From positions 46,583 to 110,582 of IMG/VR virus record IMGVR_UViG_3300033067_001837: DNA of 64,000 nucleotides. One strand, 5' to 3'. The stretch's first letter is position 1. Every line of letters starts with the position of its first letter. Origin of the DNA: a virus. Lineage: Duplodnaviria; Caudoviricetes. The position numbers and the translations under genes were made by a program. The notes beneath the pieces were generated by a model. The model ran no database searches, was not told the DNA's origin, and worked only from the letters and a program-made list of their open reading frames with translations. Positions 2,328 to 63,549 of the stretch are shown piece after piece.

Positions 2328-4124
2328 TCAACGCATATTATGAATTTGTTGATAGCTTAACCCATCGACATACTGACCGGTTTTTGGATCAATCATGCCG
2401 TAAGTACCGCTACCTGATTTGTAGATTTGACCCTGTTTGGCAGATTTACCGTCACCTAAAGGTTGGATGTTATTCCATTGTTCAAATAATTCCGTATTGA
2501 AAATTTCTCGACCGTTTTCATCCATGCTTTTATAAACACCAGGCATTTCATTAGAGCCTCCACTAGCAGGACGATTCGCCATAATCGCATTGCGCTGCGC
2601 TTCCAAAGCGCGACCTTGGCCTTTATCCATTATTTCCATATAAGCTTTAAGATCGTTAAGCTTTTGTTCAGCCTGCTTATCACCGCGTTCCGCTGCGTAT
2701 TTCAAAGCAGCAAACTCATTCGCTGCTGATTTAGAAGCCATCTCGTTTTCAGAACCTAACAGGTTTGACGCTATACCCGCCTGTACACCATGGCTCTGTT
2801 GTAAAGCTCGAGTGGCACTATCATTTTGTGCTAGACCAATTTGTAATGCTTCTATGGCAGCACGACGCTGGCGTCCTTTACCCTTCCCATAGTCATTTGG
2901 CGCATCCTTGAGTTTCTGAATTAACGCAGCCCGCTCTTCCTGCAACGCGCTCATATCCGGGGACGGAGCCAGTTGGCTCATCATGGCCCGAATCGCGTTA
3001 GTTTGCGCTTCCTGTTCAACCGTAGGTAGTCCTTGCGCTTTGCGGTTCGCATTGCGAATATCGCGCATCGCGGCTGTCTGAGAGTCAATCGTCTTGACCC
3101 GCGCATCAATCGCGGCTTGTTCTTCAGGGGTGCGTCCGCCGACAACGGAGAGGGTGCCGCCGCTTTGGCGTTGACCATAGAAGGTCGCTGATCCTTTGCC
3201 TGGAACAGCATATTCCGTAATAGCACCGCCATGTTCCATACCGGCTTTAGTGGCGTCGTTGGGTATATATCCTCTTGCTCCGAACGATTGTTCCAACCCC
3301 ATTTGCTGACCAAACCGAGTAACATTTTCATTACTTTGGACAGCAGCAGTGTATTCTTTCGGTGTACCAAAACGTTCCTTCATCAATATATTTTCATCAT
3401 AACCCGGTGGTTTTCCGCTAATAGCGTTATTGACTTCTGGGTTATTCAAGGAACGATAGCCATTAGATATTAAAGGCCCAGCTTCTTGTGCGACTTGACT
3501 TCTCTCTCGCATATCCTTAAGTGCAGCACCATCTCCAAGATAGGAAAGTACACCATTAATGTCGGTTCCCCCTAATTTCTTTGTAGGATCGGGAGGTGTT
3601 ACTCCTACCTGATTAAGCGGCGCTGATACCGGAGCCTTAACAGATTGCATCTGCTTTTGAATAGTCTCTTTATTATTATAGACTTGTCCTTGTGGCCCCT
3701 GAATAATAGGTACATCACCTTCAAACCCGATAACCTTATTAGCATTATTCGCTGCCATAGCCTGCTTCGCTTCTAGACTATCTAATGTTCCTTCGCCTAA
3801 TGGAGATGGGTACATCATCATCCCAACTCCACCTGCCACCCTACTTACAGGAGATGCGGCTATTTTTGTTAATCCGTTAGCTAACTGCGTTCCTACTCCT
3901 ACAGGTTGTTTAGGAATAGCTGTGGTAGTTGTGCTAACTGGTTGTTTTGGGGCGTTTCGCAAATTACGCAATGCGTCATAATCAACAAGACCTCGAGTGG
4001 GTGCTTGAGAAAAATTAGCAGGTGTGGCACCCGATTTTATTTGGCTCGGAGTTACCGGGGTGCCTTGCATTAATGATCGCAATTCACTAGGGGTAAACGG
4101 TCTATCAAACATTAATCCAGCCAT
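2328..4124 (-). CDS. Putative internal virion/DNA ejection protein
   Basis: Track ORF 2328..4211. Start moved to MAGLMFDR at 4124 (AGGAG RBS; a terminator lies in the upstream extension). Low-complexity, helical Ala/Gln-rich. Confidence 0.55.
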   Translation of the reverse strand: MAGLMFDRPFTPSELRSLMQGTPVTPSQIKSGATPANFSQAPTRGLVDYDALRNLRNAPKQPVSTTTTAIPKQPVGVGTQLANGLTKIAASPVSRVAGGVGMMMYPSPLGEGTLDSLEAKQAMAANNANKVIGFEGDVPIIQGPQGQVYNNKETIQKQMQSVKAPVSAPLNQVGVTPPDPTKKLGGTDINGVLSYLGDGAALKDMRERSQVAQEAGPLISNGYRSLNNPEVNNAISGKPPGYDENILMKERFGTPKEYTAAVQSNENVTRFGQQMGLEQSFGARGYIPNDATKAGMEHGGAITEYAVPGKGSATFYGQRQSGGTLSVVGGRTPEEQAAIDARVKTIDSQTAAMRDIRNANRKAQGLPTVEQEAQTNAIRAMMSQLAPSPDMSALQEERAALIQKLKDAPNDYGKGKGRQRRAAIEALQIGLAQNDSATRALQQSHGVQAGIASNLLGSENEMASKSAANEFAALKYAAERGDKQAEQKLNDLKAYMEIMDKGQGRALEAQRNAIMANRPASGGSNEMPGVYKSMDENGREIFNTELFEQWNNIQPLGDGKSAKQGQIYKSGSGTYGMIDPKTGQYVDGLSYQQIHNMR

Positions 4125-4149
4125 TTTTCTTCTCCTACCTACCAGGCAT

Positions 4150-4173
4150 AAAAAACCCCGAAATCTCAGGGTT
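4150..4173 (-). terminator. Rho-independent terminator
   Basis: AACCCTGA-GATT-TCGGGGTT-TTTT on the minus strand. Confidence 0.7.
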
Positions 4174-4210
4174 GTCTTTAATCTACAGAAATTGTTTTGT
4201 TTGTTAATCA

Positions 4211-4942
4211 CTAACGAAACAAAGCACGGGATGCATCCGTAGTTGCAAACGGATCGTTATTTAAACGACTAGTATCATTGTTTTTGTATGGATTTTTAAA
4301 CCCGGAACCACCTGTAGATGCCAATCCGGCACGATTCAAATCACTCTTCAATACGCTATCCATGGGTTTTTGCGGAGTCGCGCTTAATCCAAAAAGACTG
4401 GCTAATTGCGCCATTTGCTTGGGGTCATTCCAGTCTGGTATCGAGGGTGTTGTCGTTACAGCCGGGGTCTGCATCGATTGATAGGTACTGGCTGCTTTAT
4501 TTAGTCGATCCGCCATGGATAAATCTTGACCAGTGACACTCAAGTTGGTGGCAGGGGTAGGCAAAGCAGTGACAGGACTGCTTAATCCGCTGCTTACTCG
4601 CTCGTTCATATCCTTCCCAGCAGCCGATGAGTAATCAATAGTGGGAACGGATGTTTGCGGCAAGGCTGTGACAGACGCGCCAATACCCGGTGTGGTAATC
4701 GGCGCTGTGGTTACAGCAGGCGTTGCGGGACTAGCAGGTTTCTGTGGATTCGTAGCATCACTAAAACTATTGGGCTTTGTTGTAGCTGCCTTGTTAGGAT
4801 CAGGTAAAGCGGCGATACCGGCTTTAGCGCCACCGAGAATCGCGGCGTTATTAGCGGTTGACCCTGGTGGGAAATAGGTCGTTGAGGAACCACTGACGAA
4901 ATTACCGTCGTTGTTTTTGTTCGGGGTTACTGATGTAATCAT
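4211..4942 (-). CDS. Ser/Thr/Pro-rich hypothetical virion protein
   Basis: 243 aa ORF with AGGA RBS, co-oriented with the structural module. Confidence 0.55.
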   Translation of the reverse strand: MITSVTPNKNNDGNFVSGSSTTYFPPGSTANNAAILGGAKAGIAALPDPNKAATTKPNSFSDATNPQKPASPATPAVTTAPITTPGIGASVTALPQTSVPTIDYSSAAGKDMNERVSSGLSSPVTALPTPATNLSVTGQDLSMADRLNKAASTYQSMQTPAVTTTPSIPDWNDPKQMAQLASLFGLSATPQKPMDSVLKSDLNRAGLASTGGSGFKNPYKNNDTSRLNNDPFATTDASRALFR

Positions 4943-39976: not shown

Positions 39977-40200
39977 CCTGAAATAAGGGAGGTGTCCTCA
40001 CAGGAGGTATTAGTAAACGTCATCCAGTCCTGTAACGCCCCATTTAATTCATTCGTACGCACATGACTACGAATGATCTCAACAAGAATCTCAAGTTGTT
40101 TGTCGCGAGAAGTCCGATCTAAAGACGGATTCAGTGAGCGATTGAGGATTTCTTGCAGTGTCTTGGAAAACTGTGCGGCGCGAGCGGGATCATTAACCAT
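39949..40200 (-). CDS. Hypothetical protein
   Basis: 83 aa overlapping the TerL stop. Confidence 0.45.
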   Translation of the reverse strand: MVNDPARAAQFSKTLQEILNRSLNPSLDRTSRDKQLEILVEIIRSHVRTNELNGALQDWMTFTNTSCEDTSLISGWYRQEFLN

Positions 40201-43200
40201 AAGCAGCTTTTCTCGGTTTTAAGCGTTTAACATTACTGGGGAGTTCTTCTTCTTTCTCGGCGTCTACGTCAGCGGAGTTGCGCACCAACCATGAATTCGT
40301 CAACCAGATAAACGCTTGAGAAATCGTATCGGCGGTGTCATTGGGATTACCGGGTCGAAAGGTACACATCTCGTCAATCACATCTTCCGCCCATTTCCGA
40401 TCTGGATAATAAACCCGACCGTTCTCAAACAAAGACTGTGCTCGATAGGCACGAGCAATCTTATCATGTTCGGGGTTAAACGCATGAATCGGCAATCCTG
40501 CCTTTCTTAAATCCTGCACCAGAGAGATACCGGAGGATTTCTTTTCGATAATAATCTTGTCTGGACTGTATTCTCGATAAGCAGCTAATGCCTCTTTCCG
40601 TAGAGCCGAATAATCTACCTGTCCTTTCCAACGTTCCAGCAAGATCACGTTCGCATAATCTTCATCGGCATGTTGAAACACACCCCACGTTGTGCGGGCG
40701 CTAAAAGAATTTGCCTTAATGTCCTGTTCGGTATAGGCAGTATCCCAGGATTGAATAATATAACTGCATTCAGGAAGTGGTTTGCTGTCGGGCCATTTCT
40801 TCCACCAACCGCGCCGGAAGATTTCACCCTCTTCAACGAACGGCTTTTGTTGATAAAGAGCTTCCCAATCTCGCGCTGGGAGGGTGCGGCGAATCTTCTC
40901 CAGTTCTTCTATCGGGTAACGCTCTGGCCACAGCGCCTCGCCTTTCTCGTTAATGGCGGGTAAGTCCAGATGTATCCAGTTTTCGTGACGATGTTCTTTA
41001 AGTAACCAACCCGCCAAATCCTCAAGTTGCCACCGAGTCTGACAGACAATAATAGAACCACTATCCATTAAACGAGTGTAGGCAACGCTCGTATACCAGT
41101 CTTTGAGTTTGCGGCGACTTGACTCCGAGTCACTGATTTCTCTCGATTTTATAGGATCATCTACGATTAAACAGTTTTTTACAACCAGGGGCGTCCCCTG
41201 GTCTGTCAGTGCTACGAAATTATGGTGTTCAAAAACCTCTATGTCATACACTTCGACTAAATCGTTGTATACAGGCTCAACCATGCAAATGATGGCCGTC
41301 CCAACTTGTGAACCCTCATGTGGCAGGAATGGCAAATAGTCACCATATTCTCCATTACATTGTTTGCTGGATTCTGGTCGATATGATGGATATGAAGAGT
41401 CTCCGTTGCATGGCAAGCCACACACCGCGACCCATCTCTCGCTAGAATCTCCGGTGTCATCCTCCTTAATGTACCTCGATCTATTTCCGTTCCGTCTTGA
41501 TAATTCGAGTTGTTCTCTCCCATCATTCTTGTTGAATGACCCTTGTCTGCACATTCCTTTGAGCAATACCATATTCCCGTCCTTCCCCGTTTCTTCGCAT
41601 ACTCCATTTCCCTTCGATCCTTCATAAACTCCTTCTGGTATTTCTAGCATTTCGTAGGCAAGTATATTCTGGCCTGCCGTAAGCGATTGGGCTTCGATGT
41701 AGCCGACCCCTGCAATGTAAAATGGGTGTTCTGGTGTGCAGGTGATTGACCCTCTGTTAGTGACAACTCTAACAAGCTCATGTGATTTTCTCCGAGATAC
41801 GGCCACAATCGGCGACCAAACAAACGCATTGTTCTTTTCAGAAAACGACAATGCCATTACCGGAGAATTATATCTTAATATATCGGAAATATATATAATA
41901 CCATGACTTGTTAATATCTTTGTGTCTCCTGGTAGACAATTTGCGCCACGACCCGTGAGCGCCCCGCCGACACCGACTGCGAAGTAGCCACCTGTTTTCG
42001 GATGCGCCAGATTGAATTTATCGACAGCCGCCGAGTCTTCGGCCAGTTTCACGTCAGGAAAGATTTCTTGAAACAGCGGATCAGCGATTTGGTTGCGGAC
42101 TTTTCGTCCAAAGTCAGAGGCGAGGTCTTGCCCGTAGGAAGCCGCGATCACTCGTTTATCGGGGTTGCGTCCTAAATACCAGGCCGGAAAATACTCACTT
42201 AGGAGCATGGAATTGTGGGTAGGGATTAGGGTTCGACCTACAAGGTAGAGGCCGTCTGGAGAATCGACTTGAATACACTTACCTTGCTCACCGTTGGGCT
42301 GATAAATAACCTCAGTAATCGCCAACCTTCTACGATCAATGGCTATCCAGTCGATTTGCTTCCTTGGAATTTTTGTTGGAATATCCAGTGTCGGCTGAAA
42401 TCCAATATAGAAAACCGGCCTTTTTCCTACAATCCCACTACTGCTTGTGCAGGGCTGCTGTTCAGTAACATAAGGTCGTTGCCCAAGTCCTGTTAGTAGA
42501 TCAACAATGGCGTCTTTAAGTATAACCGACACCGTAGAAATACGAACCCGCCCGGTTGAACGCTCAACATGTCCATCAGTATCAATCAGTCCTGCCAGCA
42601 AATCCAAGCGTTGATCTAACGATGACCGAAGATAAATTTCCGGTATATTCTTTTCACCAAGAATTCTCAGTTCTCGCAGGGTTTGTCTAATACCTTGCCA
42701 ACCAAACCCAACACTAACAACACCTGTTGTTGCATGAGTGTTTTCGCTGGTCACCACAAACCCGCGCCGTTCGATCTCTTCTCTCGGCTCACGATCCTTT
42801 GGATGATAAACAAAATCTGATCCAGTAGATGTCCCGTCGCCCAACCAGACTCCCAGAAAATAAGGGTCTAATGGAAGATCGGCGTGATCAAACAACACTG
42901 AGCTAGTATCTGGTAGCTTAAATCTATAGTGATAACCACGTTTCCCAACCGGCCCGTGTCCTGGAGGTTGGGAAAAAAGATACTGAGTTTCTACCACGCG
43001 CCACTGGTGCATAAGGCGATCAAAAACCCGCCATTCGTGTCTAGCGTGACAACGGATGGTTTCTCCAGAAGTTGTTTTAACCAAAAAATCATCTTGGTGA
43101 GTTTCAAACATATCACCACTCGATATAGATTCCGCCAGCACCTCAACCGGATTGCCGGATGGATGAAAAACAAAGTCGCCAACCTTGAGTTCGCCGTGTG

Positions 43201-43798
43201 TTTTCCAGCCATCCATCGTTAAAACTGGGGTACTGTGGGCACATTCCTTTCCGTGCCTCGGTGGAACCGTGATCATCAACCGCTTAATCTCTCCCCGCTC
43301 CACTCGCTCCAGGTACTGCGCGATCAGACGATGATGCGTAGCAGGTTCATAGTTCGCCCACTGCAAGCAGGCGTAGGACAATAGGGCATCGTGCGCGAAC
43401 GCCACCGCAGGATCACCGTCCACAATAATAGGAGGGTCTTGAATCGGGACGCCAGCCCTCATGCGTTTAATGATGGTGTGCCGCTTCTTGATCGACTTCC
43501 TGAGCGCTGCATCGCCCTTGCGCCCCACAGGATTTAAACACCCGCAGCTTTTACGTTTATTGTTCTGTAAGGCATAGGCTGACACCTCGCACAGCGTCCC
43601 GCAGTCGCACCAGCACTTCCAGTACACCCGCCCCTCCGTATGATGCGAAAAGGCGTATACCGTCAGGTGATGAATGTTCTTCCCGCGCATATCAAGAATG
43701 CGATGATTCTTGATCAGGGTTGTTTCAATCTCGGGGCAGGGAACCGGGTTCGGTTGCGGTTCGCGTTCGCGTTTAGGTCTCGGCTGTTTCTTGATCAT
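40193..43798 (-). CDS. terL: Terminase large subunit with two inteins and an N-terminal Cys-rich extension
   Basis: Walker A PPRHGK|S; TGRGAN|CLIVDDP (Walker B); QTRW..EDLAG; LWPE; ALYQQ.P; IQSWDTA; IEKKSSG; D..D..SQA. Confidence 0.93.
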   Translation of the reverse strand: MIKKQPRPKREREPQPNPVPCPEIETTLIKNHRILDMRGKNIHHLTVYAFSHHTEGRVYWKCWCDCGTLCEVSAYALQNNKRKSCGCLNPVGRKGDAALRKSIKKRHTIIKRMRAGVPIQDPPIIVDGDPAVAFAHDALLSYACLQWANYEPATHHRLIAQYLERVERGEIKRLMITVPPRHGKECAHSTPVLTMDGWKTHGELKVGDFVFHPSGNPVEVLAESISSGDMFETHQDDFLVKTTSGETIRCHARHEWRVFDRLMHQWRVVETQYLFSQPPGHGPVGKRGYHYRFKLPDTSSVLFDHADLPLDPYFLGVWLGDGTSTGSDFVYHPKDREPREEIERRGFVVTSENTHATTGVVSVGFGWQGIRQTLRELRILGEKNIPEIYLRSSLDQRLDLLAGLIDTDGHVERSTGRVRISTVSVILKDAIVDLLTGLGQRPYVTEQQPCTSSSGIVGKRPVFYIGFQPTLDIPTKIPRKQIDWIAIDRRRLAITEVIYQPNGEQGKCIQVDSPDGLYLVGRTLIPTHNSMLLSEYFPAWYLGRNPDKRVIAASYGQDLASDFGRKVRNQIADPLFQEIFPDVKLAEDSAAVDKFNLAHPKTGGYFAVGVGGALTGRGANCLPGDTKILTSHGIIYISDILRYNSPVMALSFSEKNNAFVWSPIVAVSRRKSHELVRVVTNRGSITCTPEHPFYIAGVGYIEAQSLTAGQNILAYEMLEIPEGVYEGSKGNGVCEETGKDGNMVLLKGMCRQGSFNKNDGREQLELSRRNGNRSRYIKEDDTGDSSERWVAVCGLPCNGDSSYPSYRPESSKQCNGEYGDYLPFLPHEGSQVGTAIICMVEPVYNDLVEVYDIEVFEHHNFVALTDQGTPLVVKNCLIVDDPIKSREISDSESSRRKLKDWYTSVAYTRLMDSGSIIVCQTRWQLEDLAGWLLKEHRHENWIHLDLPAINEKGEALWPERYPIEELEKIRRTLPARDWEALYQQKPFVEEGEIFRRGWWKKWPDSKPLPECSYIIQSWDTAYTEQDIKANSFSARTTWGVFQHADEDYANVILLERWKGQVDYSALRKEALAAYREYSPDKIIIEKKSSGISLVQDLRKAGLPIHAFNPEHDKIARAYRAQSLFENGRVYYPDRKWAEDVIDEMCTFRPGNPNDTADTISQAFIWLTNSWLVRNSADVDAEKEEELPSNVKRLKPRKAAYG
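41174..41938 (-). mobile_element. Intein 2 in TerL (255 aa) ending in Lys-Asn
   Basis: GAN|CLPGDTKI...CTPEHPFY...VYDIEV..HHNF...VVKN|C. Confidence 0.88.
41257..41625 (-). CDS. HNH endonuclease in an alternative frame inside TerL intein 2
   Basis: YCSKEC, GENNSNY, RDG.RC..C, LHIHHID....NN..EN.VTIC..CH...H; AAGGAG 3 nt before the ATG. Confidence 0.8.
   Translation of the reverse strand: MKDRREMEYAKKRGRTGIWYCSKECADKGHSTRMMGENNSNYQDGTEIDRGTLRRMTPEILARDGSRCVACHATETLHIHHIDQNPANNVMENMVTICHSCHMRVHKLGRPSFAWLSLYTTI
42212..43246 (-). mobile_element. Class 3-type intein in TerL Walker A (345 aa) with LAGLIDADG endonuclease
   Basis: PPRHGK|ECAHSTPV...HARHEW...KCIQVDSPDGLYL..LIPTHN|S; YFLGVWLGDG and LLAGLIDTDG. 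Confidence 0.88.
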
Positions 43799-46368: not shown

Positions 46369-46637
46369 TCGTTCCACTAATAGAGTCCTATAAAACTCTA
46401 TTTCCTGGGCCAAAGCGGGCTTCACGTAAGGCGCTATATGCTGACATTATGGCACGTTGCGGTGGAAGTCGGAAGGTAGAGCATCGGATTATCAGGAAAT
46501 GGGGAACGCGCGAGGTAGCGATTCCTGATGATGCACGGGAGGCCATGCAGGACGCAGTGATCGAGGCATGGACAGGGGAGTTCGACAAGGAGGGTTTGAA
46601 ATTGGCGATTTCGGTATATCCGAAAGAAATTTCTTGA
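46362..46637 (+). CDS. Early hypothetical protein, possibly DNA-binding
   Basis: Start MLVVP; R.IRKW....V.IP pattern reminiscent of HTH proteins. Confidence 0.5.
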   Translation: MLVVPLIESYKTLFPGPKRASRKALYADIMARCGGSRKVEHRIIRKWGTREVAIPDDAREAMQDAVIEAWTGEFDKEGLKLAISVYPKEIS

Positions 46638-60289: not shown

Positions 60290-60586
60290 TCAAAACGGTA
60301 TATCACTATCATCCACCACTGCCACAGGAGCCGGAGCCGGGGCCGGTGCTGCCGCGATAGGCTTCCCGTCCTTGTTCTTCGGATCAAAAAATGACAATAC
60401 AATCGAATCCGATCCTTCCTTAAACGGCACGCCAGCCGGGTTAAAACTACGGTTCAACATCACCATCTTCCCGCCATCGTCCATTTGCAGCACCATACCG
60501 ACGTTCTGCCATCGGCCATTCTCTTCGCCGTTACGATCCTTGTAAGTTCCGGTTTTTACACAAACATCTTTGATTTTTCTAGGCAT
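60290..60586 (-). CDS. SSB-like single-stranded DNA-binding protein
   Basis: G.Y.D.NG..K/N.RW..VG; acidic DDSDIPF tail. Confidence 0.65.
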   Translation of the reverse strand: MPRKIKDVCVKTGTYKDRNGEENGRWQNVGMVLQMDDGGKMVMLNRSFNPAGVPFKEGSDSIVLSFFDPKNKDGKPIAAAPAPAPAPVAVVDDSDIPF

Positions 60587-60616
60587 GGCGTTCTCGAAAG
60601 GTAGACGTAGACGGCT

Positions 60617-60645
60617 ATTCTACCAAGGTAATTGGTAGATTACTA
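60617..60645 (-). promoter_or_regulatory. Promoter overlapped by 19-bp operator
   Basis: -10 TAGAAT; operator CTACCAA-GGTAA-TTGGTAG at 60620-60638. Confidence 0.65.
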
Positions 60646-60664
60646 GAGGCTAATCCTCGCTCAA

Positions 60665-61144
60665 TCACAACTCGATGGCGTGCTTCCCTAAGTCATTGAC
60701 CTCGCCGAACTGAAGAATCCATTTTAGACCATTGTGAGTAGTCATTTTTATTTTTTCAAATTTATCAATCTTTTTGCGCATTTGTTGATAGAGTTGGACG
60801 GGGATACAAACGCTATCGTGGGGAATAAAAAGGGGTTCAAAGTGTTCGTGGGTCATGGGTTTTCCTTCGGTTTCAAAAGGATTCGCACACCAAAATGCTC
60901 GAGAATCCTTTTTTTTCGTGATTAATCGTCCGGTTATCCAAGCCGCAGCGAGGCCGGAGTGGGTGTTCCGAACTGTTTTTTGTAGGGCCGTTGCGGATAG
61001 AGGGGACAATCGGGCGCGTTCAATCGGGTCGATGTACTCGGTGACAATACCCGCCGCTGCCCGCTCTTCTCGGAACTTAGCCATCCATCCGTTCCTTGAA
61101 ACCCAAGCGGGGGGGTTCGGTGTCGGGTTTAAAATCAGCATCAA
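60665..61144 (-). CDS. Hypothetical protein
   Basis: 159 aa; may be two fused ORFs. Confidence 0.45.
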   Translation of the reverse strand: MMLILNPTPNPPAWVSRNGWMAKFREERAAAGIVTEYIDPIERARLSPLSATALQKTVRNTHSGLAAAWITGRLITKKKDSRAFWCANPFETEGKPMTHEHFEPLFIPHDSVCIPVQLYQQMRKKIDKFEKIKMTTHNGLKWILQFGEVNDLGKHAIEL

Positions 61145-61297
61145 ACATCAATTTCTTCCTTTTTTTTTCCGGGTCAGACGCCGTCTGGAGCCGGGTAATG
61201 GGGTCAGGTAGGGTTAGGGTAGCGGGTCGGGGTTCTTAGGCGCGTCTACACGGCTTCCGCACAGTATACTACTAACCCGGTTGGGTAGCTCGGGAAA

Positions 61298-63061
61298 TTA
61301 AAACGCCATCCCGGCTTGCGCTGTCCGTCCCTCGATGAGCGGGATATATTCTGGGTTCAGTTCAATCAGGATCGCGTGTCGGCCCAGGCGTTGGGCGACT
61401 TCGCCTGTCGTGCCGCTACCGCCGAAGAGGTCTAAAACTGTGCAGGGTTGCGAAGGAGCGTTGCAGGTGCAGGCAGGGCGGAAGCCGATGGTGCGGGTTT
61501 GATTAACAAATTCCTCTCCCTGTTCGCGGGCGGCTTGGCGCTTCATCGCTAATCGATTAGCGGCCATGCCGGTTTGATAGGCGCTGTCCGTGGTTCCATC
61601 ATTCGGCGGGTTGTCCTTTTCGATGACACGTTCTAAAGGCTTCCCGCACTCGCTACAGCATCCCGCTTCACTGGTTCCGGCCAGGATGCAAGGTTCCACC
61701 AGTTTGCGGGGCATGGTGGCAAAATGGCTTATTTTTTCTTGTACTTCTCGGTATAATTTACATGTACAATCAATGGGAAACAAAGATGAATACATGCGTT
61801 CGTTGTGGGAATCCGTTTGAACCGAAGGACAAACACAAGAATCGTCAGCACTTGTATTGCTCGCGGGCGTGCGCTCAACCGAATCGAAAAGACCGCATCG
61901 TTCTGACTTGTCGCCAGTGCAATCGTCTGTTTGAGAGAAAGCGATACATGCAGAACTGGTCGCAAGATCGTGGCCCATTTTGCGGATTCTCGTGTTACGG
62001 TCAATGGCAGAAAGATCACACGGCTGGAGAAAACAGCCCGAACTACAAGCCGAACTCCCCGCGTCGTCAGTCAGGTCAGTGGGAACGAAATCGGAAACTG
62101 GCTCTTGAACGAGATGGTTATTGCTGCAAAACATGCGGTTCCATAAATCACTTACACGTACATCACATTGTTCCGTGGTTTCCTGGAGCAACATCGCCGC
62201 ATGAACTGGGCAATCTGGTGACACTATGCAGAGGGTGTCACCGGAAACAGCATCGACTTCAACATGATGTCGACGAACGGTTTTTACCCATCCACTAAAA
62301 GGATCAGGCCCAAGCAGCCAGAAGTTGCGAAGGTTGCGCTTGCCGTTCTCCGGGATGCCCATTGCACCCTGCTTGACCGGCTCTTGAGTGCGTCCGCTAC
62401 GGTTACTTTGGTATAGCGGTGTAGAGTTCATTTTGCGCGGCTGGTCTTTGTTGACCGTACCCGATGGCCCGCTGGTGGCTTCTTCCTTGACGGCTTCTGC
62501 GTCATAGAAATATCGGGCGTATTTCGTCAGCAGAAAGACTTTTTCCGTGGCGTTCGTGGGCCGGTCGGTTACGCTCTCAGGCATTGCCGATTTTTTGCAC
62601 CACGTTATTTCGGAGCGCAAATACCAGCCATCGGCTTGAAGCGCCAACGCTACTCGGGCTGGAATCATTATCAGGTCTTTATATTTAAGGCCGGGGGGCG
62701 GAATGGGTTTTTTATCGGCGAAAGAACCGTCTGTTGATTTACCCTCTCTATCAAGCGTTGTTTTGCTTTGATAGCTTGCTCCGCTCGGCCCGCTGCCAGC
62801 GTAAGAATCCCCGATGTTCAAAAAAAGCACTCCATCGTCCCGCAAGACGCGCCGGACTTCTCGAAACACAGCCACCAGTTCATCCACATAAGCATCGGGC
62901 GTAGGTTCTAATCCGATTTCGCAGCATTTAGCGGCGCTGTCCGCAGGCAGATATGATCTTAATCCGTAATAAGGCGGGCTGGTCACGCAACACTGGATGC
63001 TGTTGTTGGGCAGCGTTTTCAGCACGTCCCGGCAATCGCCGAGTAAAATTTGCACGGTCAT
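61298..63061 (-). CDS. Beta-class N4-C/N6-A DNA methyltransferase with large in-frame insertion
   Basis: GDC...L..LP..S.QCCVTSPPY (motif IV), LRSEI.W.K...MPESV.DRP, HFAT.P..LVEPCILAG, VLD.FGGSGTT (motif I), IELNPEY. Confidence 0.9.
   Translation of the reverse strand: MTVQILLGDCRDVLKTLPNNSIQCCVTSPPYYGLRSYLPADSAAKCCEIGLEPTPDAYVDELVAVFREVRRVLRDDGVLFLNIGDSYAGSGPSGASYQSKTTLDREGKSTDGSFADKKPIPPPGLKYKDLIMIPARVALALQADGWYLRSEITWCKKSAMPESVTDRPTNATEKVFLLTKYARYFYDAEAVKEEATSGPSGTVNKDQPRKMNSTPLYQSNRSGRTQEPVKQGAMGIPENGKRNLRNFWLLGPDPFSGWVKTVRRHHVEVDAVSGDTLCIVSPDCPVHAAMLLQETTEQCDVRVSDLWNRMFCSNNHLVQEPVSDFVPTDLTDDAGSSACSSGCFLQPCDLSAIDRNTRIRKMGHDLATSSACIAFSQTDDCTGDKSERCGLFDSVERTPASNTSADDSCVCPSVQTDSHNERMYSSLFPIDCTCKLYREVQEKISHFATMPRKLVEPCILAGTSEAGCCSECGKPLERVIEKDNPPNDGTTDSAYQTGMAANRLAMKRQAAREQGEEFVNQTRTIGFRPACTCNAPSQPCTVLDLFGGSGTTGEVAQRLGRHAILIELNPEYIPLIEGRTAQAGMAF
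61786..62298 (+). CDS. HNH endonuclease antisense inside the methyltransferase gene
   Basis: Two C..C/CS..C zinc repeats, GENSPNYK, W...RK.ALERD.Y.C..CG....LHVHHI.P......H...NLVTLC..CH...H. Confidence 0.88.
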   Translation: MNTCVRCGNPFEPKDKHKNRQHLYCSRACAQPNRKDRIVLTCRQCNRLFERKRYMQNWSQDRGPFCGFSCYGQWQKDHTAGENSPNYKPNSPRRQSGQWERNRKLALERDGYCCKTCGSINHLHVHHIVPWFPGATSPHELGNLVTLCRGCHRKQHRLQHDVDERFLPIH

Positions 63062-63069
63062 ATTGGCTC

Positions 63070-63549
63070 TTAAACCTTCTCAAAATGTTCGCAATAGTGC
63101 TTATGCAGTCCGAAGCGCCCGGTCAATCGCTTCCCGTTGATCGTCACATCGCACAGCCGACAGGCACTCTCTTCATCGCCAGGTAGCGAAAGTCGACCGT
63201 GGGAACAGTCGATACAACGCACAGGGAGCCGTTCTACGGCTATTTTCAGCGCAGGGGGTACTCCGATAGTGATTTTCTCAATCGTCGCCCCAAACGCCGT
63301 TTTTAGCGCCTCTACGTCGCTGTTCGCTTGACGCCGCAGGTAGGCCGCGATGTTAGCTTTATTCGCGGTGATCCAGGCGACCTGCTTCTCGCTCAGTTTT
63401 ATCCGGGGCGAGACCAGCACCTTGTCATCGGGGAGCAGGCTGATGACGAAGCCCGCCGCCACAATCTTGTCCAGCGCCGTTGCAATCCGTGTTAAATCAG
63501 TGGGCGGGGGCTGGCCCTGTGTTTCGTAGAGGTTATCGAGCAGCGACAT
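63070..63549 (-). CDS. Hypothetical replication-region protein (TubC N-terminal docking-like segment)
   Basis: AGF.ISL..D...V.P...LS..Q..WI.ANK..I..YL; C-terminal Cys cluster. Confidence 0.5.
   Translation of the reverse strand: MSLLDNLYETQGQPPPTDLTRIATALDKIVAAGFVISLLPDDKVLVSPRIKLSEKQVAWITANKANIAAYLRRQANSDVEALKTAFGATIEKITIGVPPALKIAVERLPVRCIDCSHGRLSLPGDEESACRLCDVTINGKRLTGRFGLHKHYCEHFEKV

Follow-up and report, generated by a model that had tools for sequence, protein, structure and literature searches.

An antisense HNH endonuclease gene in a phage DNA methyltransferase whose reading frame is kept open, probably without splicing

How can an endonuclease gene occupy a conserved motif of another gene and leave the host protein readable from end to end? 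To our knowledge, homing endonuclease genes have been thought to survive in conserved genes only where self-splicing introns or inteins carry them, or where the host gene is split. The question is raised here by a stretch of 64,000 nucleotides (the window; positions 46,583 to 110,582 of IMG/VR record IMGVR_UViG_3300033067_001837, Caudoviricetes), which is part of a complete 110.6-kb virus record and belongs to a circular contig in one public run. In the window, a DNA methyltransferase gene is interrupted by a stop-free insert that carries an HNH endonuclease gene on the opposite strand. An earlier examination of the letters alone (the sequence-only reading) had proposed a homing element that spares its host gene without being spliced. 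Comparison of the locus with its relatives leads us to a similar view: this is probably an unspliced antisense HNH gene within a phage methyltransferase, through which translation of the host frame is maintained by selection. The parts of the locus on which the argument depends are these:

61298-63061, minus strand: host gene, a beta-class N4/N6 DNA methyltransferase of 587 aa including the insert (PF01555, N6_N4_Mtase, E=4.7e-34, matched in two stretches)
61730-62290, read on both strands: inserted element of 561 nt (187 codons), methyltransferase aa 258-444, delimited by codon-level comparison with the empty alleles P0002/L056 and P0004/L057
62291-62302, minus strand: upstream host junction P-F-S-G, with Ser256 in place of the Pro of empty alleles, its A-initial codon creating the HNH stop
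61709-61729, minus strand: downstream host junction S-H-F-A-T-M-P, a conserved methyltransferase motif identified by comparison with empty alleles and homologues
61762-62298, plus strand: HNH homing-type endonuclease gene of 178 aa, with two N-terminal zinc ribbons and an HNH core (PF01844, E=2e-8)

The catalytic motifs of the host protein are intact, motif IV (SPPY) preceding motif I (FGGSGTT), and residues S28, P29, P30, D544, F546 and G548 are invariant in an alignment of 101 methyltransferase homologues. Foldseek matched the methyltransferase model to the folds of CcrM (6pbd), M.PvuII (1boo), M.RsrI and M.BceJIV. The insert divides the motif PFSG/SHFAT, which in empty alleles reads PFPG/SHFA. 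The nearest insert-free allele (P0002/L056) is 75% identical to the window methyltransferase, and the empty-site DNA in L056 and L057 has the form CC(C/T) TTT CC(A/C) GGA / AGC CAC TTT GC, with the 561 nt of the window sitting between GGA and AGC. Boundaries were set codon by codon, since a DNA-level MAFFT alignment with the empty alleles misplaced the gap. So defined, the insert has the 187 codons by which the sequence-only reading had taken the motif to be split; the coordinates given there (61727-62298) were right to within a few bases, the excess being the Ser445 codon and the codons that carry the HNH stop. The same insertion site is used in 41 unique loci. The host gene remains a single open reading frame (ORF) of 587 aa rather than two separately translated ORFs, and its halves share one frame in the loci tested.

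The frame that connects these halves is free of stops throughout the window insert, as first noted from the sequence; the two remaining antisense frames have 14 and 4. With the HNH gene of the window, the probability of finding none is 0.011 by synonymous shuffling and 0.0035 by codon permutation. A protein search returned dozens of methyltransferases of about 40% identity (543-660 aa) with an alignable insert at the same place. Since a sample assembled through the methyltransferase is biased to open frames, the HNH protein alone was used as a second query. The single HNH sequence gave no matches among viral contigs and an alignment-based search was needed; with 55 aligned HNH relatives as the query, 43 viral, 8 genomic and 80 metagenomic loci were recovered. 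These loci were found via the HNH gene, and the sample is therefore unbiased towards open methyltransferase frames. It supplied 41 unique genes at first, 25 further loci, and 59 unique elements overall. In every one of the 59 embedded elements, in which an HNH gene is flanked by methyltransferase halves, the HNH gene is antisense and the methyltransferase frame runs without a stop. Insert lengths are all divisible by three, and in the viral and genomic loci the two halves are in the same frame, with codon position 1 of the HNH gene always facing position 1 of the methyltransferase.

Composition gives a measure of how far this departs from expectation. The other two antisense frames contain, as a family average, about 10 and about 4 stops. 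Expected stops per gene number 2.9 by synonymous shuffling and 4.1 by codon permutation, and over 41 genes the summed log10 probabilities of finding none are -72 and -84, respectively, sums that overstate independence since the loci share ancestry, an effect that the saturation of synonymous sites suggests to be small. Twenty free-standing HNH relatives (at least 130 matched codons, without methyltransferase flanks) have between 1 and 16 stops in the same relative frame, and none has zero. In four contigs the gene caller had chosen the HNH gene; the methyltransferase frame is open there nonetheless. We conclude from these codon comparisons that the open, in-register host frame is kept by selection. 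A freshwater metagenome relative (X2, 95-99% identical) has a 3-nt insertion, TCG, at window position 61922, and both frames are preserved.

The gene on the other strand is itself well formed, as the sequence-only reading had it. In the HNH family alignment, residues C12, C15, C33, C37, C50, C53, C122, C125, H134, H135 and C156 are invariant and N151 and H160 are nearly so, and mean entropy by codon position is 0.98/0.92/1.51 bits. This pattern across the alignment indicates purifying selection on the HNH frame from end to end. The gene uses the element to its very edge: its TAA stop (62296-62298) is completed by the host, from the TT of Phe255 and the A of Ser256. The residue after PF is S, T, N or K in most invaded alleles because host codons complete the HNH stop in this way; it is P or R in the empty alleles shown. 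One relative, L004, has an in-frame TGA at codon 51 of its HNH gene (2501-3025), in place of a variable residue, with the methyltransferase frame open; either the endonuclease is in decay or the TGA is an error of sequencing.

A candidate promoter lies in the 32 nt that separate the host junction from the HNH start ATG; its -10 box had been pointed out at the same coordinates:

61752-61757, plus strand: TATAAT, a perfect -10 box that lies within the insert and would serve the HNH gene, recognised by sequence and read as a conserved 'LY/FY' in the methyltransferase frame
61729-61734, plus strand: weak -35-like hexamer TTATTT, 17 nt upstream of the -10 box and spanning the junction of exon and insert; in relatives the hexamer is TTGACT or TTGTTT

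The assignment is based on the perfect -10 box together with conservation at the level of the family. About 17 relatives have TTGACT, TTGTTT or TTGTCT starting 5 nt past the host His446 codon, followed by a 17-nt spacer, TAnAAT (often preceded by TG) and then the complement of a Cys-x-Cys (CxC) motif of the methyltransferase frame. Beyond the CxC complement lies either a Shine-Dalgarno sequence with an ATG, or an ATG within CxC, in which case the message would be leaderless. In the methyltransferase frame, the conserved 'FY' and 'K.S' can be attributed to the boxes, as the shadows of the -10 and -35 sequences. Among isolate phages in GenBank there is no close relative of the HNH protein, the best match (31%) being in Brucella phages. 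In the Brucella phage records H31-H70 (Tb, Pr, R/C and others), the match lies where the annotated large terminase overlaps the HNH gene, and this may be another nested endonuclease.

The middle of the methyltransferase-frame insert peptide is unconserved, whereas its two ends are conserved beyond what the HNH gene dictates. Four conserved Cys/His residues, drawn from segments of the insert that are distant in sequence (Cys284 and His287 in one, Cys432 and Cys434 in the other), define a putative clasp, with the ligand set that a structural zinc site of the treble-clef-like type (knuckle plus helix) would have. Its two halves lie at:

62201-62221, both strands: doubly constrained 21 nt, reading HELGNLV of the HNH active-site motif on the plus strand and S-P-D-C284-P-V-H287 on the minus strand
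61760-61768, minus strand: C432-T-C434, the CxC half of the putative clasp, overlapping, across the two strands, the first ATG of the HNH gene; 55 of the 59 elements have CxC

The case for selection at the first of these depends on synonymous codon choice. Cys284 requires an opposite Asp or Gly codon that ends in C, and His287 requires the HNH His codon CAT. The codon opposite His287 is CAT in 37 of 37 sequences, against a background of 0.47 (P=1e-13), and the codon opposite Cys284 is GAC in 29/29, GGC in 7/7 and AAC in 1/1 (P=5e-8); the Leu codon of the 21-nt stretch is YTG in 24 of 27 (P=1e-6). At third positions, entropy falls to 0.00 for the His and Asp/Gly codons and to 0.34 for the Val codon, compared with 0.85-1.0 for every other invariant His or Cys codon. 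When synonymous codons were resampled with stops forbidden, the clasp Cys was expected in 21.6 of 40 sequences and observed in 40, and the His was expected in 18.7 of 40 and observed in 38, corresponding to z of about 6 at these positions versus a mean of 2 over all columns. Because fixed synonymous codons are needed, conservation of the Cys and His exceeds a mere shadow of the HNH motif, and the comparison indicates that the same clasp codons are selected on both strands.

At the second half, the third base of the CxC codons is always a pyrimidine, with TGG in 0 of 76, and cysteine rather than a DNA motif is therefore indicated. CxC is also retained in sub-families where the promoter boxes shift, in which case it falls in the promoter spacer rather than past the -10 box. 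Cys284 is present in 40 of 40 sequences, and the position of His287 is occupied in the 59 elements by 56 His, 1 Cys, 1 Asp and 1 Tyr. The departures are concerted: His287 and CxC are lost jointly in L011 and P0063, L017 has Asp for His287 together with CxxC, and L070 and P0094 have Cys for His. These exceptions appear to behave as would those of a metal site. The expectation that the CPVH residues and CxC would be conserved while the middle drifts was thus borne out by the counts, the fixed codons and the predicted disorder of the middle.

Structure prediction gives a consistent picture. AlphaFold2 was run on the whole protein (101-row alignment) and on the insert with short flanks (40-row alignment), and the two jobs agree on two folded ends:

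62177-62287, minus strand: N-terminal folded part of the insert, aa 259-295, comprising two strands, the CPVH turn and a helix (pLDDT 83-92 in both models)
61730-61771, minus strand: C-terminal folded part of the insert, aa 431-444, comprising CxC and then a ten-residue return strand (pLDDT ~90)

Between them, aa 296-422 have pLDDT of about 30 in both models and are predicted to be disordered. A profile of the insert matched nothing below E=0.6 among Protein Data Bank sequences, and prediction of a complex of the two insert ends with zinc returned a score of 0.10 and a mark of 0.32. Conservation, co-variation and the confidence of the AlphaFold models suggest that the clasp may bind zinc, a proposal to which we give slightly less than an even chance.

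The methyltransferase has a second loop of this general kind, CSECG...ACTC, which had been cited in support of a clasp in the insert:

61463-61657, minus strand: native loop of ~65 residues bracketed by CCxxCG (C469/C472) and CxC (C531/C533), present in many insert-free homologues and missing from others

The loop is real, but it is native to the methyltransferase subfamily, occurring as it does in insert-free homologues. It resembles the ligand pattern of the insert clasp. The idea that it is a relic of an older HNH element was considered and rejected; its six frames contain no HNH remnant (best E=0.2).

The distribution of the element is that of a mobile one. Pairwise identity between HNH proteins does not follow that between exteins (r=0.002 over 725 pairs), with HNH proteins 49% alike on average and hosts 41%, and the methyltransferases closest to that of the window (75-82% identity) are empty. 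These comparisons indicate that the element is moving among divergent methyltransferase alleles and that the histories of element and host are uncoupled. Variant loci show what is retained when the element changes. In L095 (1-1800), a mini-element, the antisense HNH core is deleted and an in-frame remnant of about 77 codons keeps CPLH and CLC, in parallel with mini-inteins. Just past the native 'GCC' of L095 the methyltransferase frame breaks, with a further HNH gene on the far side, and the break may mark a second, gene-splitting invasion site. In L085 (1055-2764) and L089 (709-2682), distant antisense HNH genes (31-33% identical) occur about 10 codons upstream, after RxVW, and the frame is open. 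Both keep CP[IV]H and CxC, and L089 shows a partial repeat of the VW..F target. The presence of CP[IV]H and CxC at this upstream site implies that the clasp belongs to the element and not to the site.

We propose the following mechanism. The HNH protein would be expressed from the plus strand without dependence on the host gene, by a promoter that the insert itself carries. Since the 561 nt are stop-free and in register on the minus strand, ribosomes would read through to produce a methyltransferase of 587 aa with an extra loop of 187 residues. The first ~37 and last ~14 residues of this loop may fold jointly as a small stalk or clasp, with Cys284 and His287 serving as ligands from one side and Cys432 and Cys434 from the other, and the ~127 residues between the clasp halves would be disordered filler dictated by the HNH gene. 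By reuniting the methyltransferase halves, the clasp could leave the enzyme usable and the parasite tolerated. The HNH protein would cut or nick empty alleles at the PF(P)G/SHFAT codons, and repair would copy the element in; that it acts in homing is suggested by the patchy distribution, the constant site and the lack of coupling between the trees.

It is also possible that the insert is removed by an RNA or protein splicing route that lies outside current models, yielding a mature methyltransferase without the 187 residues. Like introns and inteins, the element does sit between codons of a highly conserved motif; Ser or Thr directly precedes HFAT in many invaded alleles; and unrecognised splicing was also left open by the authors who described the related ShiLan domain (PMC11855218). 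The signatures of known routes are missing, however, in keeping with the sequence-only claims that intein termini are lacking and that there is no room for a ribozyme core. Rfam covering 60500-63500 returned no family, intron or other, at E<=10, and Pfam returned none, Hint/intein included, in the insert at E<=10; the part of the insert outside the HNH ORF is a mere 32 nt. The first residue of the insert varies across loci (W, S, Y, A, F or G), as does the one that precedes His446 (S, T, D, N, A, E or G), His-Asn is not found, and the +1 residue is His446 or variable. No splicing fold is predicted, the insert middle being disordered. The open host frame argues further against an intron because an intron would not need one, and RNA splicing would make needless the in-register frame that all 59 elements keep. 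Contigs of four sequencing runs contained no joint across the insert and no empty allele, although contigs alone are silent on splicing, and none of the runs listed as containing the phage is an RNA run. We regard removal by splicing as quite improbable. Chance or composition as the source of the open antisense frame is hardly credible. Single genes can mislead in this respect, as in the GC-richer members L012, L014 and L022 the chance of having no stop is 0.2-0.4, but the joint probability over the 41 unique genes is ~1e-72, no stop occurs in AT-rich members for which 4-5 are expected, the free-standing relatives are never free of stops, and synonymous codons are fixed at the clasp.

Several points weigh against an unspliced, read-through enzyme. 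Read-through itself is inferred from selection, and the activity of the methyltransferase is putative, given the 187 residues that adjoin the HFATFP motif. In principle, the frame might be held open for ends other than methylation, the avoidance of polarity among them. Loci of shared ancestry are counted in the summed probabilities, the HNH promoter was not called by a two-hexamer promoter scan of the window, where the -35 box is weak, and the metal of the clasp is likewise putative. A wide VIA-align search of the insert-only model against solved structures gave a best Z of 2.0, without a clear fold match. The insert-bearing methyltransferase might accordingly be dead, its frame kept open to avoid transcriptional polarity downstream, or the fusion might have acquired a new role. 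The location of the insert beside the HFATFP motif is compatible with this, and phage methyltransferases are often dispensable, as argued in PMC11855218. Yet the catalytic motifs of invaded alleles are all invariant, exteins are conserved over ~40% divergence, the C-terminal half is read in its own frame by virtue of an insert length that is a multiple of three, and selection on clasp residues at both ends fits best with a need to join the enzyme halves. A dead or repurposed enzyme is thus unlikely, though we find it less so than splicing. Still less probable, and very much so, is that function lies primarily in the methyltransferase-frame peptide, as a genuine accessory domain over which the HNH gene would be an overprint, secondary or in decay. 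Selection in the methyltransferase frame and confident folding do hold for both insert ends. The entropy profile of the HNH gene (0.98/0.92/1.51 bits by position) and its invariant zinc and catalytic residues run counter to that arrangement, as do the unconserved and disordered middle (aa 296-422), the lack of any family match and a patchy distribution uncoupled from the host tree; L095 suggests, moreover, that the insert middle can be lost without loss of methyltransferase function. We therefore retain the unspliced, read-through element as the probable reading. A stronger version of it would hold that the ends of the insert are a purpose-built, host-sparing zinc clasp, with CPVH placed opposite the HNH active site and CxC over the HNH start and promoter, and that such a clasp is a third general vehicle for homing endonuclease genes, doing by fold what splicing does and outliving the endonuclease, as in L095. 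This version is attractive but tentative, and we would put it at somewhat less than even.

Homing genes are known to persist in host genes by several other means. In phage Aeh1 the free-standing homing gene mobE splits nrdA into two ORFs, the products of which reassemble. The present element likewise persists in a host gene without splicing, but here the host remains one continuous ORF. The closest parallel is the ShiLan domain of mycobacteriophage DNA methylases, a stop-free insertion that is neither an intein nor an intron (PMC9957025, Gosselin et al. 2023) and that hides, in the same strand's +3 frame, an HNH gene whose start lies 18 bp inside the insert (PMC11855218, Arsenault, Gosselin and Gogarten 2025). 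The two have much in common: an in-register, stop-free insertion of ~190-200 codons at a conserved site of a beta-class phage methyltransferase; a host-frame peptide without a known domain, mostly disordered and predicted to form a looped-out structure; a zinc-ribbon HNH gene in another frame of the same DNA, with the HNH stop at the insert's very edge; the lack of an intron or intein signature; and a patchy distribution uncoupled from the host tree. They differ in that the HNH gene is on the same strand in ShiLan and is thought there to need leaderless or internal initiation (PMC11855218), whereas here it is on the opposite strand in all loci, with a promoter inside the insert. A ShiLan-type example is provided by gp54/gp55 of Applejack (PP978873; PMC12613952), in which the gp55 HNH gene is on the same strand as gp54 and the insertion lies near aa 113 of gp54 rather than at PFxG/HFAT. 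The Applejack and window methyltransferases share only motifs IV and I, and their HNH proteins are 28% identical (E=5e-9). The methylase of phage HC is without an insert.

The class of insertions that hide an HNH gene is thus already published in its same-strand form. As far as they were read, the two ShiLan papers (PMC9957025, PMC11855218) mention no synonymous-site selection, mini-element or conserved Cys/His clasp; PMC11855218 nowhere uses the words antisense, opposite or reverse; and a literature search yielded no paper describing an antisense, unspliced form. Judged by comparison with the ShiLan domain, what appears to be new is the antisense layout, together with the insertion site, the promoter within the insert and the clasp. 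Overprinting on a stretch of host that is translated has precedents among inteins, in which antisense or out-of-frame endonuclease genes have been known since Gorbalenya 1998 and Gogarten et al. 2002 (as summarised in bioRxiv 10.1101/2025.01.02.630785). There, too, an endonuclease is overprinted on a translated-through stretch that must stay open, mainly in phages. Those inteins have Hint splicing blocks and excise themselves, however, whereas the methyltransferase insert has neither the blocks nor the nucleophiles, and their endonucleases are LAGLIDADG, VSR-like or endonuclease VII-like (bioRxiv 10.1101/2025.01.02.630785) in place of the HNH found here. Phage HNH endonucleases borne by group I introns (I-HmuI; I-PfoP3I, PMC3428280) resemble that of the window in having a homing gene at a conserved site that is likely to spread by cleavage or nicking and repair. 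The present element differs from these in having no ribozyme, almost no non-coding DNA and an open host frame.

The ShiLan papers proposed an unspliced, translated-through route from a handful of mycobacteriophages, without a selection test (PMC9957025, PMC11855218). Our comparison extends this to some 60 diverged elements, drawn from bacterial genome bins as well as uncultured phages, demonstrates formally that selection keeps the host frame open, and supplies a clear case of 21 nt selected for two proteins on opposite strands. The Cys/His clasp offers a concrete structural device that could explain tolerance of the insert, and it could serve as a portable 'loop-in' module for the insertion of cargo into enzymes. 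Such elements are systematically missed because gene callers annotate either the methyltransferase or the HNH gene and never both.

More than one mobile insert may be present in some of these host genes and genomes. In L003, L018, L033, L036, L014, L032 and L060, invaded methyltransferase ORFs are 880-1126 aa long or have a second HNH match, for example at 4036-4338 (plus strand) in L032 and in a gene at 3308-4057 (minus strand) in L060, and these methyltransferases seem to be hot spots for multiple mobile inserts. Elsewhere in the window, the large terminase gene (40193-43798, minus strand; an ORF of 1201 aa) appears to hold two inteins. The second of these has an HNH gene of 122 aa at 41257-41625 (minus strand), in a different frame of the same strand, the product of which is a paralogue of the methyltransferase-borne HNH protein with 31% identity. 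Since the terminase and methyltransferase HNH genes are both present, the same phage hides HNH genes in same-strand and antisense layouts.

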